IMG/VR virus record: IMGVR_UViG_2541047926_000009
Coordinates: 1 to 10,439 of that record
Origin: a virus
Lineage: Duplodnaviria; Heunggongvirae; Uroviricota; Caudoviricetes
Strand: one strand, 5' to 3'
DNA length: 10,439 bases
The position numbers and the translations under genes were made by a program. Of this stretch, positions 1 through 10,111 are shown piece after piece; position 1 is the first letter of the stretch; every line of letters begins with the position of its first letter. A model generated the notes under the pieces. It saw only the letters and a program-made list of their open reading frames with translations, was not told where the DNA came from and made no database searches.

Positions 1-678
1 TTAATCGTACGAGTCGAGTATGTTCTGAAACGCCCAGCCATCCTCCTTAGGAACACAAGACAGAATCGAATGAATTAGATCCCCTGCGGAAAGAAGTAAC
101 CCTTCTTGCCCTTCAAGAAAATAACGCCATTTAGGTCCATGAAACAGATTGTTCCGTAACCGGAAACAAACGAACAAGCACACTGCAAGCTGAGTCTCAG
201 GCTCGGTTGTCATAGCTTGCATGGCTGAAAAACAGTCATCTCTCGCCTTTTGAGAGGTGTGGTGTAATTCCCCGCATAGGCTTTCAAACTTGCTTTTATC
301 ATTTACATAGCGTTCTGAAAAAAAATCGTATGTACACTTGAGAACCCCCAGATCCACAACCTCCATTTGCAAAAGACGATTGGCATATTTCGCACTTTTG
401 CCTTGCCCCCCAGCGCAATTAAGAAGTAGAGACTCGAAGAAAGAGAAGTACAAAAAATAACGATTAACGGCGGTAAGGATAGATGGGGTAATCCTGCCTT
501 CTGCATTAATCAACTCGTCAAATTCTGATGAAAAATCCAACTGTTCATCCTTTTCCATTATATTCGGCCATTTATTGATATTGCACATCAGTCGCTCTTG
601 GCAATGACAGGTTTGCTCTCGGTAATGTCTCAAACGCCCCAAAAAGTAGTCTCGCAAATGCTCTAGTTGCTCGCGCAT
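1..678 (-). CDS. Hypothetical accessory (moron) protein, 225 aa; contains a HEPN-like Rx4H motif (FRLRNNLFHG); candidate abortive-infection/defence protein
   Basis: Complete ORF on - strand (ATG at 676-678, TAA at 1-3). Visibly AT-rich relative to the lambda-like core genes. Preceded upstream by a - strand intrinsic terminator (803..830), so it is probably its own transcription unit. Only a weak GAAG RBS. No recognised family beyond the short motif. Confidence 0.5.
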   Translation of the reverse strand: MREQLEHLRDYFLGRLRHYREQTCHCQERLMCNINKWPNIMEKDEQLDFSSEFDELINAEGRITPSILTAVNRYFLYFSFFESLLLNCAGGQGKSAKYANRLLQMEVVDLGVLKCTYDFFSERYVNDKSKFESLCGELHHTSQKARDDCFSAMQAMTTEPETQLAVCLFVCFRLRNNLFHGPKWRYFLEGQEGLLLSAGDLIHSILSCVPKEDGWAFQNILDSYD

Positions 679-1201: not shown

Positions 1202-1810
1202 CTATTGCAATCTAGCCTGACGCAAATGTGGCAATACCCTGCTCCACTTATTATCCTGCCAAGGCTGGAATTTTACATGTGCCGTTTTTCTGGCAAGGAT
1301 TTCGCGCGCCTTATGTAGTATCTGGGGATATTCTTGCTCGATAGAAGTAAAGCGACCGGCTTCGCGGTGTTCCGCAACCTGAAGAAGTGGAGTAACGTTC
1401 TGGCAGGCGGTTAACATCGTATCACTTGCTCGCCATAACCAAGCAAGTGTGCAAAGTTCGTTATCAGTGAATTGTTTTGTGATCGGGGATTGTTGAACTT
1501 CTCGATCGAGAATATCCAGAACCCAGCGGCGGAACTCTTTGGCTACAGGAGTTCGTGCAAACATGGCGATCAAATGGGCTCCGCGAAGGCTAAATACTCG
1601 AGACTCCTGCATTCCACGAGGGGTGGTCACTTTGACCACCCTTGTCATCATATCTGTAAATTCATCTGAGTGACGAGAGTAAATGCGCTGAACTGCTTTA
1701 TCGTCCGCATATTCCAGAGCTAAACCAACTTCAGTGGCAGTAAGCCAAATTCTGTTATTGTGGCAAATTGGGGTAAACGTCGTTTTGTGGAATGCTAATT
1801 GAGTAGTCAT
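1202..1810 (-). CDS. Bro-N / antirepressor-like (Roi-like) N-terminal domain protein, 202 aa
   Basis: ORF with a good RBS (GAGGTG about 6 nt upstream of ATG 1808-1810). The N-terminal ~100 aa follow the Bro-N/ANT pattern (W-L-x-A-x-E-V ... G-x-Q ... AK-E-F-x-x-W-V). Located in the nin-region position downstream of P. Domain call is from pattern recall only. Confidence 0.5.
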   Translation of the reverse strand: MTTQLAFHKTTFTPICHNNRIWLTATEVGLALEYADDKAVQRIYSRHSDEFTDMMTRVVKVTTPRGMQESRVFSLRGAHLIAMFARTPVAKEFRRWVLDILDREVQQSPITKQFTDNELCTLAWLWRASDTMLTACQNVTPLLQVAEHREAGRFTSIEQEYPQILHKAREILARKTAHVKFQPWQDNKWSRVLPHLRQARLQ

Positions 1811-1966
1811 AGTATCACCTCATCAGGTTAACCATCACCACCAACGACGCCAATCGACTGGTGGTGAACTGTGCAAGGTTGGCGTAACCGGCTACTCAAA
1901 CCCGGCGCTCCCGAAGAAGCCCTCACACAGCCCACCATAATTTGGGCGTAGCCGTGCTTAGCGCAT

Positions 1967-1987
1967 AAAAAAACCGCTTAACGCGGT
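1967..1987 (-). terminator. Putative tR2-like intrinsic terminator (- strand)
   Basis: Stem ACCGC (1973-1977) / GCGGT (1983-1987), 5-nt loop; on the - strand followed by a 7-nt U-run (complement of A-run 1967-1973). Sits downstream of the P operon and upstream of the Bro-N gene. Confidence 0.4.
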
Positions 1988-2476
1988 ATGCGTTGAGTAG
2001 TATTCCGGGACGCCAATCCCGTGTGCCGATTTTGCGGCAACGCACAGAATATAGCGCCGGATAAATAATGTCGTCAACCCTTGCAAATGGGGGGCGCGAT
2101 GATCACTACTACCACTATAACCGCTCCAACTGTTGCAACTACTTTAGGCCAAGACATCAAGATTTCCATATCACCTTTAGCTGCGAAACGAACAGAGGTT
2201 CCCATCTCTATACTGCCGAGGCCAAACACCGAATATAAAAAACCGCAGGTGCATCTCTGCATCTGTGAAGGGAGAAGAGAGTTTGGATTGTATGTGCGCA
2301 TAAACGTCCCCGTTTAGCGCAGAAGTCACCGGAGTTGTTCATATTCTGATGACATGATAATTTCCTATTGAATAGAAAAAATTAACACTACTCATTCTTA
2401 TGACTGGAAAAAGCAATCATGCTAATAATCATTGTTGTTCCAGTTCCAAATGCAGCGAAATAATCACTAATATTTT

Positions 2477-2559: not shown

Positions 2560-2907
2560 ATGACTATCAAAGCGACTGACATAGAGATTCTTCATCGTTA
2601 TGCTGAAGGGGTAATGGAACGTTCTAACCATCATGCAAAAAATGTTGGTGCAGCCGCTCTTACATTGCTAGGAGGTGTTATCTGGAAAGCCCTGCCCGGC
2701 TCAATCGAGATAAGAACGTATAACGGAAGTCTTGCAAATATGGTGTGGTGGCAAAGCGAAAGAACATTAAAAAATTATGCAATCTCATACAACCATAATT
2801 CATGTGAAATTGAAATGAGAGATGAATCAGTCAAAGGTGCTGTATTATTTAGCATTTCCAACGAAACCACTCCAGAAAAAATATTATCACAGCTTTCTGA
2901 GCTTTAA
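2560..2907 (+). CDS. Hypothetical moron protein, 115 aa, opposite strand to the flanking early-right operon
   Basis: Clean ORF with ATG at 2560 and TAA at 2905-2907; AT-rich; own candidate promoter upstream and a perfect hairpin (2913..2930) immediately after the stop; convergent with P. No recognised family. Confidence 0.5.
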   Translation: MTIKATDIEILHRYAEGVMERSNHHAKNVGAAALTLLGGVIWKALPGSIEIRTYNGSLANMVWWQSERTLKNYAISYNHNSCEIEMRDESVKGAVLFSISNETTPEKILSQLSEL

Positions 2908-4825: not shown

Positions 4826-5371
4826 TCATATTGCCCCCAGCATGGTGGTCACCATCGCCATTAATGGACCAGCCAGATCCGGGTCCACACGAAACATCGA
4901 CACAATACCTTCACTCATTTCCTTCAGTTTCTGGTGGCGTGGTGCGTTGAGAATGACAGCCTGTTTTGCCTCACTGAGTTCCTTTTCCATTTCAGCCAAC
5001 CGAACCATGAAGCTATCCTGCTCAACCAGGTAACCGCGATATTCCAGCGGTAGTACCGCCAGAATTGCCGGGGTCAGTTCACGCACGTTATTTCGGTATT
5101 TTTCAGAATCGAATTTGTTATCGAGGAAGCGGAACAGCTTCTGGCGTGCACGGCTGACATCATCAGGGAAATCGATGGTGCCGCCGCCCTGCTCCCGATA
5201 CTCATTCACAATGAGTGTGGCAACGACATCCTGATTATCTACAGCCGACCAGGCGCGGACGGCATCACGGATTTTTTCGTGGCCTGGCACCTGTTTTGTT
5301 TGAGAACGATTTATCACCGCAGTCGGGCTAAATCCGCTAGTCTGTTGGTATGTAAGTGGTTGCATAGTCAT
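4826..5371 (-). CDS. cII-position lysogeny regulator (CII/YdaT-like), 181 aa
   Basis: ORF directly downstream of cro and upstream of O on the same strand, i.e. the cII position; RBS AAGG. Too long to be lambda-type CII. Family assignment is positional and tentative. Confidence 0.45.
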   Translation of the reverse strand: MTMQPLTYQQTSGFSPTAVINRSQTKQVPGHEKIRDAVRAWSAVDNQDVVATLIVNEYREQGGGTIDFPDDVSRARQKLFRFLDNKFDSEKYRNNVRELTPAILAVLPLEYRGYLVEQDSFMVRLAEMEKELSEAKQAVILNAPRHQKLKEMSEGIVSMFRVDPDLAGPLMAMVTTMLGAI

Positions 5372-5395
5372 TGCCTTATCAGTTAACGCCGCAGA

Positions 5396-5623
5396 TTAGG
5401 CGGCAGAATTACTCGCGTTAAACAATGGTGCGAGGTCGGGACGAATATCTGCTGGTTTAATCTTTCCACCAGTGGCTGAGACAATTTTCATTACATAGCG
5501 GGCATCAATTCCGCCACCGTGTAGCCAACGCCAAACAGTGGGTTGGGCTACACCGCATAGATCTGCCAGTCGTTTTTGACTACCTGTAATACTGATTGCG
5601 AGTTGAATGGTTTTATTTGTCAT
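5396..5623 (-). CDS. cro: Cro-like repressor (YdaS-type HTH), 75 aa
   Basis: Small HTH protein divergent from cI (MTNKTIQLAISITGSQKRLADLCGVAQPTVWRWL...). ATG at 5621-5623 with AGGAA 6 nt upstream; the track start at 5629 is a TTG. Shares the GVAQPT(I/V)WR recognition-helix motif with the cI N-terminus, consistent with binding the same operators. Confidence 0.75.
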   Translation of the reverse strand: MTNKTIQLAISITGSQKRLADLCGVAQPTVWRWLHGGGIDARYVMKIVSATGGKIKPADIRPDLAPLFNASNSAA

Positions 5624-5654
5624 TATCAATTCCTATTGGTATTGAAATGAATGA

Positions 5655-5684
5655 ATAATAGCAATGCGTATTAACCAAAATCAA
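5655..5684 (-). promoter_or_regulatory. pR-like promoter for cro
   Basis: On the - strand: -35 TTGATT (complement of 5679-5684), 18-bp spacer, -10 TATTAT (complement of 5655-5660); about 30 bp upstream of the cro ATG. Confidence 0.5.
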
Positions 5685-5722
5685 TAGCAAAACGTGTTTT
5701 GACCATCAATACGCAAGCGTAT
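5658..5722. promoter_or_regulatory. oR-like operator cluster: three 14-bp sites at 25-26 bp spacing
   Basis: ATAGCAATGCGTAT (5658-5671), ATAGCAAAACGTGT (5684-5697) and ATACGCAAGCGTAT (5709-5722, near-palindrome ATACGC/GCGTAT). They overlap the pR -10, the region between the two -35 elements, and the pRM -10 respectively, mirroring lambda OR1-OR2-OR3. Confidence 0.5.
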
Positions 5723-5725
5723 AAA
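5699..5725 (+). promoter_or_regulatory. pRM-like promoter for cI (leaderless or near-leaderless transcript)
   Basis: -35 TTGACC (5699-5704), -10 TATAAA (5720-5725). The cI ATG (5735) is only about 10 bp after the -10 and has no Shine-Dalgarno, as for lambda cI transcribed from pRM. Confidence 0.45.
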
Positions 5726-5734
5726 TTAAAACTT

Positions 5735-6427
5735 ATGAAAAAAGAAACTCTTGCTGATCGCTTAAACCTAGCGATGGAACAATCTGGAATGTCTCAAGGC
5801 GCTCTTGCAAAGGCGTCTGGCGTAGCTCAACCCACAATCTGGAGACTGACAAGCGGCAACGCGCGCGGCTCAACAAAAATTGTTGAAATAGCTAATGCAT
5901 TGGGTGTTCGAACAGAATGGCTCTCATCAGGCATAGGCCCGATGAGAAATGACGGTCAACAATCAGGGAAGCCTGCTGTCAGCCATTCCAAATACTTCAA
6001 AATTGACGTTCTTGATATAGAAGTCAGTGCCGGGCCGGGTGTAATCAACCGTGAGTTTGTAGAAGTTCTACGCTCGGTTGAGTACTCGTTTGACGATGCT
6101 CGTCACATGTTCGATGGCAGGAAGGCGGAAAATATCCGCATCATTAACGTGCGTGGTGACAGCATGTCAGGAACGATCGAACCAGGTGATCTTTTGTTCG
6201 TTGATATCACTGTTAAATCTTTCGACGGTGATGGTATCTATGCGTTTCTGTACGACGACACAGCCCATGTAAAGCGCCTGCAAATGATGAAGGATAAGCT
6301 ACTGGTTATCTCTGATAACAAGAGCTACTCACCGTGGGACCCGATCGAGAAAGACGAGATGAACCGGGTGTTCATCTTCGGTAAGGTTATTGGGAGCATG
6401 CCGCAGACATACAGGAAGCATGGTTGA
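5735..6427 (+). CDS. cI: cI-like prophage repressor (N-terminal HTH, C-terminal LexA/S24 autopeptidase domain), 230 aa
   Basis: HTH region (GMSQGALAKASGVAQPTIWRL), candidate Ala-Gly autocleavage site (EVSAGPG), S24 catalytic Ser motif (RGDSMSG) and downstream Lys (AHVKRL). Divergent from cro across the operator region. Start set at ATG 5735; the track start at 5699 is a TTG with no RBS. Not lambda, 434 or P22 immunity by recall. Confidence 0.85.
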   Translation: MKKETLADRLNLAMEQSGMSQGALAKASGVAQPTIWRLTSGNARGSTKIVEIANALGVRTEWLSSGIGPMRNDGQQSGKPAVSHSKYFKIDVLDIEVSAGPGVINREFVEVLRSVEYSFDDARHMFDGRKAENIRIINVRGDSMSGTIEPGDLLFVDITVKSFDGDGIYAFLYDDTAHVKRLQMMKDKLLVISDNKSYSPWDPIEKDEMNRVFIFGKVIGSMPQTYRKHG

Positions 6428-6542: not shown

Positions 6543-6571
6543 TTGATATCGCCTCCGTGTGAGTGCATAAT
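6543..6571 (+). promoter_or_regulatory. Strong candidate sigma70 promoter for the rex-position cargo locus
   Basis: -35 TTGATA (6543-6548), 17-bp spacer, -10 CATAAT (6566-6571), in the AT-rich cI-distal intergenic region and about 30 bp upstream of ATG 6604. Confidence 0.5.
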
Positions 6572-6603
6572 TTAACCAAGGCATATTTTCAAGAGATTTC
6601 GTC

Positions 6604-6783
6604 ATGATTCGCAAATTATTAAAAATTATTGAATCTAAACCCCCTAGGGCCACTGATGCAGAGGTTCAGGAAGTTATTGACGAAATAAAGAAAAAACAAA
6701 ATGAAATTGCCGAAAAGAAGGAAGAGATAAAGAATGACCGTATCCGCGGCGCAAGAATCACAAACCACCGATTCATTGTATGA
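6604..6783 (+). CDS. Possible small Lys/Glu-rich protein, 59 aa, overlapping the start of the 283-aa ORF
   Basis: ATG 6604 to TGA 6781-6783 (MIRKLLKIIESKPPRATDAEVQEVIDEIKKKQNEIAEKKEEIKNDRIRGARITNHRFIV); not in the supplied track (below its size cutoff). Weak RBS (AAGAGA). Overlaps the downstream ORF by 50 bp in another frame. Could be spurious in AT-rich DNA. Confidence 0.25.
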   Translation: MIRKLLKIIESKPPRATDAEVQEVIDEIKKKQNEIAEKKEEIKNDRIRGARITNHRFIV

Positions 6784-7585
6784 TTTTCTATATGTTGATA
6801 ACAAGCGGGCATCATCGCTCTTGGCACAGATGCATGGGCCTGGTGTAATAACATCTATCAGACAGGTAACAGCTGAAGTTGACAAATCAGTAAGTGATGC
6901 CGGCTTTGACATTAAAATCATTAAGTCAAAACTTGGTGTTGAGGAAACTATCAATTACACCCATGAAAAAAGCTATGATGCTTCATGGACGCTTCCTATT
7001 AACCTCTTAGATAAACTTTCTGAAAATGATCTAATAAAAACAGAACTTAATGGTGAAAGACTTGGGAGTACTGTTTTATCTAAAGGCCATGTTCGTATTT
7101 TTGATATTTCCATGTTTCAAAAAAGCGTCCCGTTTGTAGCAAAAATGCTAAAGGCAGAACGCTCCAAGCTACCGCCAAAAGCAAAAAAAACGAATGATAG
7201 TATTGACGAAATCCCCGTCTCGCCCGGTGTCACTTTTGGCATGATGAAAGAAGTACTTAATATTGTCCCGAACACATTGCAGGTTGATTTTATTAATGAT
7301 TTTGGTCAAACCATTTGGATGACTATTAATCGTGATTACCTCACCATTAATCCAGACGATATGGTTCTAAAATATGGTGGGAGTATTCCAGGCGAATGGT
7401 ACGTACTTGGTTTTATCGATGCCCTTCCTGAATATGACCAAGAACTTTTCGATATGTCTGTGTTCCCGTCAAACCCTTTGAAAGATGGCATAACAGAAAT
7501 GCTTTCTGGGATAAAAGAATTAGCAGGCCGCAGTAGCACCGCATACGGAATGACTCCTCTTGTGATTTTCAGGAAAATTCAGTAA
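6734..7585 (+). CDS. Hypothetical protein, 283 aa, at the position occupied by rexA/rexB in lambda; candidate superinfection-exclusion/anti-phage defence protein
   Basis: Long ORF with RBS AAGGAAG about 10 nt upstream of ATG 6734 and TAA at 7583-7585; visibly AT-rich; own promoter upstream and a strong terminator right after. No Walker, nuclease or transmembrane motif recognised by eye. Function is inferred from genomic context only. Confidence 0.6.
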   Translation: MTVSAAQESQTTDSLYDFLYVDNKRASSLLAQMHGPGVITSIRQVTAEVDKSVSDAGFDIKIIKSKLGVEETINYTHEKSYDASWTLPINLLDKLSENDLIKTELNGERLGSTVLSKGHVRIFDISMFQKSVPFVAKMLKAERSKLPPKAKKTNDSIDEIPVSPGVTFGMMKEVLNIVPNTLQVDFINDFGQTIWMTINRDYLTINPDDMVLKYGGSIPGEWYVLGFIDALPEYDQELFDMSVFPSNPLKDGITEMLSGIKELAGRSSTAYGMTPLVIFRKIQ

Positions 7586-7592
7586 GTTCAGA

Positions 7593-7619
7593 CCCGGCCA
7601 CCGTGCTGGGTTTTCTTTT
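7593..7619 (+). terminator. Rho-independent terminator (tIMM-like) ending the cI-cargo transcription unit
   Basis: Stem CCCGGC (7593-7598) / GCTGGG (7605-7610) with one G-U pair, 6-nt loop, followed by TTTTCTTTT (7611-7619); 8 bp after the stop of the 283-aa ORF. Confidence 0.65.
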
Positions 7620-7745
7620 GCCCTCCCCTCATCACACACCGCTCAAAAAACCACCACATCCCTGCTTCAGTTATCGCTATGCGATGCAAGTCACAAAATT
7701 AATTCTTTTTGCTATCAAACATTTAATATCAAAACACATCAACCA

Positions 7746-7784
7746 ATAGCAATAAGTATTGATATCACCAATAGCAATAGTTAT
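7746..7784. promoter_or_regulatory. oL-like operator sites (two 14-bp sites, 25 bp apart)
   Basis: ATAGCAATAAGTAT (7746-7759) and ATAGCAATAGTTAT (7771-7784) share the ATAGCAA(T/A) half-site with the oR sites and overlap the -35 edge and the spacer/-10 of the pL candidate. Confidence 0.5.
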
Positions 7785-7787
7785 TAT
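7759..7787 (+). promoter_or_regulatory. pL-like early-left promoter
   Basis: -35 TTGATA (7759-7764), 17-bp spacer, -10 TATTAT (7782-7787); oriented toward gam-bet-exo and overlapped by the operator-like repeats. Confidence 0.55.
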
Positions 7788-7980
7788 CACCATATCGCAA
7801 CAACACAACGATACGGCAACCACCTGATTCACCGTTGCGATGACCGCTTAGATCCGCAGTTTGAATTTCAGCAGGCTTCGGGGAGTGCGAGGGGTGAAAC
7901 GGACGCGTGAACGTCGGTGTGACCAGCTGAAATTAACTCAACATTTCATACCTCAGTCGCTTCAACGAGGCGGTTTAGTT

Positions 7981-8271
7981 ATGACAACCGGCGGCCATCC
8001 ACCGCCTGAATACGCGCAGAAGTCTCTATATGTTCAGCAGCCCAGCTTACGGGCAGGAGTTTTTATGGTTCATCAACATTACGGAACACAGACCGTTAAT
8101 CGCGGTGCGGTCATGCCAGGAATGCTGGTCAAACACAAAGATAGTACCTGGACAGCATCAGCTAATTTACGCGGACGGCTTTATCTGCATCGCGGCATCG
8201 AGCGCACTTATACCCGTGACTTGCTCGTGGAAGTTTTTCTCGACGGACGCGGCAACGGCCTGAATCACTAA
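7981..8271 (+). CDS. Hypothetical protein (96 aa from ATG 7981; alternative start ATG 8065 gives 68 aa) occupying the N-to-kil interval
   Basis: ORF ending TAA 8269-8271. ATG 7981 has GAGG about 10 nt upstream; internal ATG 8065 has a stronger RBS (AGGAG, 5-nt spacer). The same frame is open from 7852 and encodes an arginine-rich stretch (RGVRGVKRTRERR) but with no ATG (only TTG/GTG). No similarity to lambda N, cIII or Kil recognised apart from the shared terminal His-stop. Confidence 0.4.
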
Positions 8272-9434: not shown

Positions 9435-10111
9435 CACCGGACATTATCCTGCAGCGTACCGGGATCGACGTGAGAGCTGTCGAACAGGGGGATGATGCAT
9501 GGCACAAATTACGGCTCGGCGTCATCACCGCTTCAGAAGTTCACAACGTGATAGCAAAGCCCCGCTCAGGAAAGAAGTGGCCTGACATGAAAATGTCCTA
9601 CTTCCACACCCTGCTGGCTGAGGTTTGCACCGGTGTAGCTCCGGAAGTTAATGCTAAGGCGCTGGCCTGGGGAAAACAGTACGAGAACGACGCCAGAACC
9701 CTGTTTGAATTCACTTCCGGCGTGAATGTTACTGAATCCCCGATCATCTATCGCGACGAAAGTATGCGCACCGCCTGCTCTCCCGATGGTTTATGCAGTG
9801 ACGGCAACGGCCTTGAACTGAAATGCCCGTTTACCTCCCGGGATTTCATGAAGTTCCGGCTCGGTGGTTTCGAGGCCATAAAATCGGCTTACATGGCCCA
9901 GGTGCAGTACAGCATGTGGGTGACGCGAAAAGATGCCTGGTACTTTGCCAACTATGACCCGCGTATGAAGCGTGAAGGCCTGCATTATGTCGTGGTTGAG
10001 CGGGATGAAAAGTACATAGCGAGTTTTGACGAGATGGTGCCGGAGTTCATCGAAAAAATGGACGAGGCACTGGCTGAAATTGGTTTTGTATTTGGGGAGC
10101 AATGGCGATGA
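9431..10111 (+). CDS. exo: Exo (Red-alpha 5'-3' dsDNA exonuclease), 226 aa
   Basis: Translation ([65 protein letters not shown] ...) is near-identical to lambda exonuclease with a few substitutions. Confidence 0.95.

Follow-up and report, generated by a model that had tools for sequence, protein, structure and literature searches.

Judging from the identities and the order of its genes (Table 1), the window (the whole stretch of DNA analysed here, 10,439 nucleotides in length) covers the early region of a lambdoid prophage. The divergent gene pair cro and cI flanks three 14-bp pseudo-palindromes, which overlap back-to-back promoter candidates. All ORFs of this module are intact. The two-gene cargo (6604-7585) located downstream of cI is AT-rich, the GC content of the cargo slot being 35-40%, and no match to its genes was obtained with the PADLOC defence models.

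Table 1. Features of the immunity module and its surroundings (positions in the window; promoters and sites are candidates).
Feature	Position	Strand	Sequence and remarks
Replication gene P	3813-3112	-	
Replication gene O	4829-3810	-	
YdaT-family CII analogue	4826..5371	-	second gene of pR operon
Immunity mosaic block 1	5368..5975		cro-ydaT intergenic stretch, cro, OR, cI codons 1-80
cro	5623-5396	-	first gene of pR operon
Weak additional site	5629-5642		matrix match
pR	5655..5684	-	TTGATT, 18 nt, TATTAT; TGn extended -10; consensus scan
OR1	5658..5671		ATAGCAATGCGTAT; covers pR spacer and first 3 nt of pR -10
OR2	5684..5697		ATAGCAAAACGTGT; overlaps pR -35 by 1 nt; 1 bp from pRM -35
pRM	5699..5727	+	TTGACC, 17 nt, TAAATT; consensus scan
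OR3	5709..5722		ATACGCAAGCGTAT; within pRM spacer, reaching 1 nt into pRM -10
cI	5735-6427	+	
Cargo ('moron') slot	6543..7613	+	downstream of cI, position of lambda rexAB
Cargo promoter	6543-6571	+	
Cargo 59-aa ORF	6604-6783	+	
Cargo 283-aa DUF6414 protein	6734-7585	+	
Terminator closing cargo slot	7590-7613		sequence kept in all aligned phages
Immunity mosaic block 2	7700..7794		OL and pL
Distal half-site	7702..7715		ATTCTTTTTGCTAT; exact TTGCTAT; 8.4 bits
Possible OL3	7726..7739		ATATCAAAACACAT; resembles OR2; tentative, weak matrix score
OL2	7746..7759		ATAGCAATAAGTAT; overlaps pL -35 by 1 nt
pL	7759..7787	+	TTGATA, 17 nt, TATTAT; towards kil-gam-bet-exo
OL1	7771..7784		ATAGCAATAGTTAT; between pL -35 and -10, overlapping -10 by 3 nt
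kil	8065-8271	+	followed by gam, bet, exo

DNA 96-99% identical to the module is present in the phages PhiR30_1, PhiR68_2, PhiR70_1, Perceval, 4A7, Lambda_4C10, D2, 1W and 3W. cI and Cro are the annotation of the module in these deposited phages (including 4A7, Perceval and PhiR30_1, whose Cro is annotated as such), and the near-identical modules reside in complete deposited genomes, several of which name a propagation host. Among 5,426 complete E. coli genomes, 723 (~13%) carry the module at an identity of 95% or more, and a cI protein 100% identical to that of the window occurs in at least 80 IMG/VR viral contigs. The specificity is unfamiliar, yet by sequence it is not new, as the same module is common in E. 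coli and is also present in Salmonella and Klebsiella phages sequenced before.

Translated from its ATG, cI is a protein of 230 aa with an HTH domain at the N-terminus and an S24 autopeptidase domain at the C-terminus, matched in Pfam by HTH_3 (E = 1.8e-6, above the cut-off) and Peptidase_S24 (E = 1.3e-18), respectively. Comparison with the PDB reveals a distant match of the N-terminal domain to that of the 434 repressor (E about 1e-5) and a match of the C-terminal domain to UmuD'. No variation is seen across five relatives in the motifs VSAG (Ala99-Gly100), GDSM (Ser143) and VKRL (Lys180). We take Ala99-Gly100 to be the cleavage site and Ser143 and Lys180 to form the dyad, judging by the corresponding motifs of LexA, lambda cI and UmuD. 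Both features expected of a CI-type repressor of lambdoid phages are present, the HTH domain as well as an S24 domain that has the Ser-Lys dyad together with the Ala-Gly site. Some records annotate the start of cI at an upstream TTG (5699) instead of the ATG (5735), and the frame between the two is open in all three relatives. The ATG is located 7 nt past the -10 (TAAATT) of the pRM candidate and has no Shine-Dalgarno sequence. Because the same short -10-to-ATG geometry recurs in Salmonella phage BTP1, a Klebsiella phage and the heteroimmune phage Turner, a leaderless cI transcript is plausible.

Cro consists of 75 aa, and the Shine-Dalgarno sequence AGGA is located 7 nt before its ATG (5623); the ORF list offers an alternative start, TTG at 5629. 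The protein matches YdaS_toxin of Pfam (E = 1e-14, above the cut-off), P22_Cro weakly (below the cut-off) and the transcriptional repressor family PHROG 35 (E = 5.6e-24), and among solved structures it comes nearest to the Xylella prophage Cro 3bd1 (E = 1.2e-3). The Pfam matches of the two regulators bear out the description of the module in the sequence-only reading as a YdaS-type Cro with a LexA-like cI. As expected for a Cro, it is a small HTH protein encoded by the first gene of the pR operon, divergently from cI. It is 32% identical to the N-terminal part of cI (BLASTP, E = 5e-9). The motif GVAQPT(I/V)WR, which had been said to be common to both proteins, can indeed be read at the turn and recognition helix of both Cro (...LCGVAQPTVWRWLHGG...) and cI (...ASGVAQPTIWRLTSGN...). 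The product of the second gene matches YdaT_toxin of Pfam (E = 1.3e-29) and the CII-like activators of PHROG 163 (E = 9e-67), and a role as a CII equivalent has been described for YdaT of CP-933P, a member of this family (PMC9986795).

The same sites as in the window are present in BTP1 and in the Klebsiella phage ST11-VIM1phi8.2, the DNA of the latter being about 75% identical around OR and that of BTP1 giving no megablast match at all. OR1 is the best match in the window (17.8 bits) to the matrix described below, and it is kept in both phages with variation at the central positions 9-10 only. OR2 (11.1 bits) is identical in both at all 14 positions. OR3 (14.0 bits) is a 6+2+6 palindrome of its own, made of a variant half-site; it is identical in the Klebsiella phage, reads ATACTCAAGCGTAT in BTP1 and is nearly invariant among 28 OR variants. 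The sequence-only reading had listed five sites sharing ATAGCAA, of which only four do so, because OR3 does not contain the word. The promoters given here are consensus matches only, and the scan behind them returned 8 promoter-like sites for the region that it covered, with 6.5 expected. The stretch from TTGACC of pRM through TATAAATT is conserved in BTP1 and Klebsiella, as is the distance to the ATG, and the counterpart in Turner reads TTGATG, 17 nt, TACATT, 6 nt, ATG. The -35 of pRM is close to the consensus, unlike that of lambda, and a dependence of pRM on activation by cI is therefore doubtful. The measured spacing of the sites is 26, 25 and 25 bp, in agreement with the periodicity of about 25 bp noted earlier, and the distance between OR1 and OR2 is 25 bp in most relatives. 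This spacing corresponds to about 2.5 helical turns, so cooperative binding as in lambda is not assured.

The placement of the other sites over pL, as claimed earlier, is correct, but these sites lie about 1.3 kb beyond the segment (5396-6427) to which that claim had been assigned. pL matches the consensus at 10 of 12 positions and is a strong candidate. OL1 (14.6 bits) reads ATAGCAATAGCTAT in most relatives, with 13 of 14 positions as in the palindrome; the window departs from this majority form by a single, minor substitution (C to T at 7781). OL2 (15.7 bits) is kept among 35 OL variants, with the adjacent spacer 7740-7745 being hypervariable. The possible OL3 is conserved among relatives, reading ATAGCAAAACACAT in two of them, and the matching place in BTP1 reads ATAACAAAAACCAT. 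The distal half-site is invariant in the 35 variants and reads ATTCATTTTGCTAT in BTP1. With these two candidates and the weak one next to OR1, the number of sites is probably larger than the five originally counted. The geometry is the same in pR and pL, where one site falls between -35 and -10 and another abuts the -35. The lambda-like arrangement that had been suggested, with three OR sites over pR and pRM and a second set over pL, is thus found, OL being composed of two strong and two weaker sites. Downstream of pL, no homologue of the N gene was found, no Rfam or HK022 match to an HK022-like put RNA was obtained, and an Arg-rich in-frame extension of kil gave no family match and a weak codon-position bias.

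The full operator is predicted to be a 14-bp palindrome of consensus ATAGCAATTGCTAT with the half-sites ATAGCAA and TTGCTAT. This palindrome is perfect in OR1 of Fraca, a distant E. coli phage, and OL sites of PhiR30_1 as well as of the Klebsiella phage follow it at 13 of 14 positions. Six exact copies of ATAGCAA are present in the window (1.67 expected), a number reached in 1 of 200 shuffles, and five of the six copies fall in two short regions (5658 and 5684 on the plus strand; 7709 on the minus strand, 7746 and 7771 on the plus strand). The sixth copy is located inside exo, at 9551. A 14-bp matrix built solely from the sites of BTP1, the Klebsiella phage and Fraca gave 4 matches of at least 12 bits in the window against 0.18 expected (maximum of 2 in 300 shuffles). 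Its six best matches are all in OR or OL (5658, 7746, 7771, 5709, 5629 and 5684); OR2 and the distal OL sites match the consensus weakly.

Polymorphism among relatives avoids the sites and is concentrated in the spacers. In 28 OR and 35 OL sequence variants, taken from phages with identical or near-identical cI, 7 of 42 columns are variable within the OR sites vs 18 of 63 in the spacers, and 12 of 56 vs 20 of 39 in OL. The maxima of variation are the spacers 5675-5683, 7740-7745 and 7764-7769. In Turner and PhiR47_2, the OL flanks and the C-terminal domain of cI are near identical to those of the window; helices 1-3 of cI and the Cro protein are different. Comparison with PhiR47_2 gives the bounds of the first mosaic block, with 5368-5975 replaced between nearly identical flanks. 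Around the second block the flanks are nearly identical in five phages, and replacement is seen only in the two which have a different cI N-terminus and Cro. The replacement DNA of Turner and PhiR47_2 carries AACAAC/GTTGTT repeats, and no ATAGCAA-type matrix match of 10 bits or more is present in the retrieved stretches of either phage. The two blocks make up the classical 'imm' determinant. Conservation in Salmonella and Klebsiella, the polymorphism footprint and the co-replacement of the blocks support the 14-bp sites as predicted operators. With the corrections given in this text, the earlier observation is confirmed, and its reading as a coherent immunity region of a different specificity is supported.

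A described type close to the module is that of Salmonella phage ST104. The HTH stretch of cI (GMSQGALAKASGVAQPTIWRLTSGNARG...) is identical to that of BTP1 and differs from that of the Klebsiella phage by two residues, neither of which falls in the recognition helix. The window, BTP1 and the Klebsiella phage have an identical recognition helix in Cro. Fraca retains ATAGCAA sites alongside a divergent Cro helix. ST104 represents a sequence type of its own among Salmonella repressors, unstudied and catalogued in 2008, and a repressor identity of at least 92% is the criterion used for predicting the same specificity (PMC2629481). cI stays below this value, being 87-88% identical to the ST104/BTP1 type in the N-terminal domain and 86% identical to BTP1 over the whole protein. 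The module is a close variant of the ST104/BTP1 type rather than a member by the 92% criterion, and it likely has the same DNA specificity as BTP1, because the HTH, the Cro recognition helix and OR2 are identical. The phages compared under this type (the Salmonella P22-like phages ST104, BTP1, ST160 and SE1, and Klebsiella ST11-VIM1phi8.2) share OR2 with the window exactly and OR1 and OR3 almost exactly, and their OL has the same layout. However, host genus and virion type are different, the linker region of cI is unlike that of the window, the CII of BTP1 and the Klebsiella phage is annotated as lambda type instead of YdaT type, and the cargo after cI in BTP1 is bstA whereas the window carries a different one. 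The immunity region of BTP1 was reported to be unlike that of P22 and to resemble ST104, with no operators described (PMC5322425, PMC7067206), and in the BTP1 lysogen cI and the downstream bstA are expressed as one operon from a single start site (PMC7067206). The specificity had been called unrecognised in the sequence-only reading. This holds with respect to lambda, 434 and P22, but not with respect to ST104 (PMC2629481) and to the many phages in which this cI and Cro are annotated.

Searches of 50,697 phage records with megablast and tblastn gave no match to lambda, 434, P22, 21, HK022, HK97, phi80 or 933W. The earlier exclusion of lambda, 434 and P22 holds for both DNA and protein matches, 434 appearing only as a distant match with another recognition helix, and no identity to a well-characterised immunity type, which had been named as a refuting observation, was found among these records. 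HK639 and the Stx1a phages, considered as characterised types, reach no more than about 57-59% identity over the N-terminal part of cI. The module resembles lambda in the divergent cI and cro, in three evenly spaced operators over back-to-back promoters, in a second operator set over pL past a cargo operon and its terminator, in an S24 self-cleaving repressor with the VSAG cleavage motif and in a probable leaderless cI transcript. It differs in having no detectable DNA similarity, operators of 14 bp instead of 17 bp, a site spacing of 25-26 bp instead of 23-24 bp, a near-consensus pRM -35, a Cro of the YdaS/P22-Cro-like family, a YdaT-family protein instead of CII and no N homologue found. For the cI N-terminus, no solved structure is closer in sequence than the 434 repressor, and operator length is 14 bp in both systems. 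However, its recognition helix is TQQSIEQLENGK in contrast to AQPTIWRLTSGN here, and the 434 half-site is ACAA in contrast to ATAGCAA. The sole experimentally studied YdaS-Cro/YdaT-CII switch that we found is that of CP-933P of E. coli O157:H7, with PaaR2, YdaS and YdaT (PMC8630535, PMC9986795). CP-933P has lambda-like pR, pRM and pL, operators at OR and OL and, as is plausible for cI here, a leaderless repressor mRNA, but its repressor PaaR2 heads a toxin-antitoxin operon and its repeats are 18-bp palindromes of consensus GTTTAGTAA. The CP-933P YdaT site TTGATTN6AATCAA occurs at chance level here (9 matches vs 9.1 expected).

Our analysis suggests that the region is very probably the immunity region of a lambdoid prophage, operating as a bistable switch of the lambda type. 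Directly seen are the sites themselves, which are positioned over promoter-like sequences, are conserved in relatives and are exchanged jointly with Cro and the N-terminal part of cI. In the proposed mechanism, cI, with its 434-like HTH and LexA-like self-cleaving domain, would bind as a dimer to the 14-bp pseudo-palindromes. Occupancy of OR1 and OR2 would block pR, the promoter of cro, ydaT, O and P; OR2, abutting the pRM -35, may stimulate pRM, and OR3, located inside pRM, may provide negative autoregulation. At OL, the two strong sites would lie over pL, the promoter of kil, gam, bet and exo, and one or two weaker ones would be located upstream. The pRM transcript from which cI would be translated is probably leaderless and continues into the variable cargo slot. 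Cro, having the same recognition-helix motif, is expected on the same sites in another order of preference, shutting pRM first, and RecA-stimulated self-cleavage at Ala99-Gly100 would induce the prophage.

It could be argued that the repeats are not operators but reflect promoter architecture shared by paralogous copies of pR and pL, or chance repeats in AT-rich intergenic DNA. pR and pL do align over their whole length, -35 and -10 included, the outcome of the promoter scan is close to chance over the region as a whole, and one ATAGCAA falls inside exo. We regard this explanation as highly improbable, however, since a third site of the same family lies over the oppositely oriented pRM, which duplicates neither pR nor pL, the consensus is palindromic, perfectly so in Fraca, polymorphism spares the sites and strikes the spacers within the same promoters, and the repeats swap jointly with the recognition helices in heteroimmune relatives. 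Defective prophages are frequent in E. coli, and the window might represent a decayed cryptic remnant in which the sequence pattern is intact while the switch no longer works. This is improbable given the intact ORFs, the preserved catalytic Ser/Lys and Ala-Gly cleavage site of cI, the recurrence of the identical cI in viral contigs and the near identity of the DNA to complete deposited phage genomes, several naming a propagation host; the single base change in OL1 is minor.

The Pfam names of the products of the pR operon raise another alternative, that YdaS and YdaT are a toxin or toxin-antitoxin pair silenced by an XRE repressor and not a Cro/CII lysis-lysogeny circuit, and YdaS and YdaT of Rac are toxic when derepressed (PMC5700373). 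However, in CP-933P, YdaS footprints the divergent promoter region in a Cro-like manner and YdaT is the CII equivalent (PMC8630535, PMC9986795). The genes in the window are present exactly at the cro and cII positions, before O and P, and in BTP1 and the Klebsiella phage the gene combined with the same Cro carries the annotation of a lambda-type CII, not of YdaT. A toxin-antitoxin role in place of Cro and CII is therefore highly improbable. The module is a genuine but ordinary repressor/Cro genetic switch of lambda style, standard in mechanism.

Spontaneous induction of BTP1 is reported to be very high (PMC5322425). It is possible, though we hold this as a tentative and rather doubtful proposal, that the ATAGCAA-type switch represents one specificity across three host genera and two virion types, with an architecture that could be leakier than that of lambda. 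Such a shared specificity may unite siphoviruses of E. coli and Klebsiella with P22-like podoviruses of Salmonella, including BTP1. Features that could contribute to leakiness are the near-consensus pRM -35, the 25-26 bp spacing, the four-site OL and the two half-site classes ATAGCAA and ATACGCA, which could possibly set opposite preferences of cI and Cro. If true, the leakier architecture could explain the induction behaviour of BTP1.

Literature searches for the operator word, for BTP1 and ST104 operators and for the PhiR phages found no description of the operators, and no reports of binding, footprinting or transcription starts for the module or its close kin were found in the searchable literature. 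What is new is the operator consensus, which is well supported and applies to an immunity type that is very common. The module leaves our picture of the working of such switches unchanged, but a well-delimited, sequence-defined operator set is added to the catalogue of lambdoid immunity types. It belongs to a module present in about one in eight complete E. coli genomes, with recognition helices in common with the Salmonella ST313 prophage BTP1. The consensus can be used for predicting homo-immune prophages and phages, and the repressor and its operators as an orthogonal pair for synthetic circuits. Furthermore, the near-identical backbones carrying either ATAGCAA or AACAAC provide a natural heteroimmune pair for studying how specificity is exchanged.

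The slot between the repressor gene cI and OL, the operator set over the early promoter candidate pL, contains a 59-aa ORF and encodes a DUF6414 protein of 283 aa; it also has a promoter candidate of its own and a terminator that is conserved. This cargo is AT-rich (35-40% GC) and its search with PADLOC gave no match. In the Klebsiella phage ST11-VIM1phi8.2 a ParA-like gene occupies the equivalent slot, which carries bstA in the Salmonella phage BTP1 and GevT/GevA in PhiR47_2. The length of the slot varies from 700 to 1850 bp across the compared loci with identical cI. The slot is likely to be a hotspot for defence or exclusion genes.

The 270-nt leader between pL and kil (7795-8064, plus strand) is 97-99% conserved, including in the heteroimmune phages Turner and PhiR47_2, and no N homologue was found in it. 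An in-frame extension of kil from a GTG at 7885 has an arginine-rich start (MKRTRERR). However, the codon-position bias of this extension, which is without any family match, is weak (5, 2, 7) when compared with that of kil (1, 5, 18). A phi80 sequence annotated as terminator resembles window positions 7944-8005.

Near the start of the YdaS-family gene cro, a weak extra operator-like site overlaps the Shine-Dalgarno sequence, just downstream of the start of the early promoter candidate pR, and both BTP1 and the Klebsiella phage have ATAC-type half-sites at the matching position. Two inverted repeats are also present, namely a GCCGC-N7-GCGGC hairpin extending over the stop codon of cro, shortly before the CII analogue ydaT (5388-5405), and a 15-nt repeat (80% complementary) inside cro over the recognition-helix codons (5519-5553). 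Each of these may act as a terminator, as a site for YdaT or as a nut-like element, or may have arisen by chance.

Additional features of the prophage early region (bits for the operator-like site refer to a matrix built only from BTP1, Klebsiella phage and Fraca sites)
Feature	Position	Strand	Remarks
Weak operator-like site	5629-5642		ATTCCTATTGGTAT; 11.4 bits
Cargo slot	6543-7613	+	between cI and OL
225-aa ORF	1-678	-	nin region
115-aa ORF	2560-2907	+	nin region; matches integron-cassette protein family VCH_CASS14
Ant/Bro antirepressor ORF	1810-1202	-	
C4 antisense RNA	1857-1942	-	Rfam, 72.7 bits
isrK	1967-2039	-	Rfam, 60.7 bits

Residues 1-23 of the 225-aa ORF show a weak resemblance to DNA polymerase III theta that does not reach the Pfam cut-off. 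Elsewhere in the nin region, C4 antisense RNA and isrK lie directly 5' of the Ant/Bro antirepressor ORF (locus 1202-2039, minus strand). This locus appears to be an antirepressor under RNA control, similar to immI of P1/P7 and carried by the same prophage as cI, and the putative antirepressor could provide a second way to inactivate cI.
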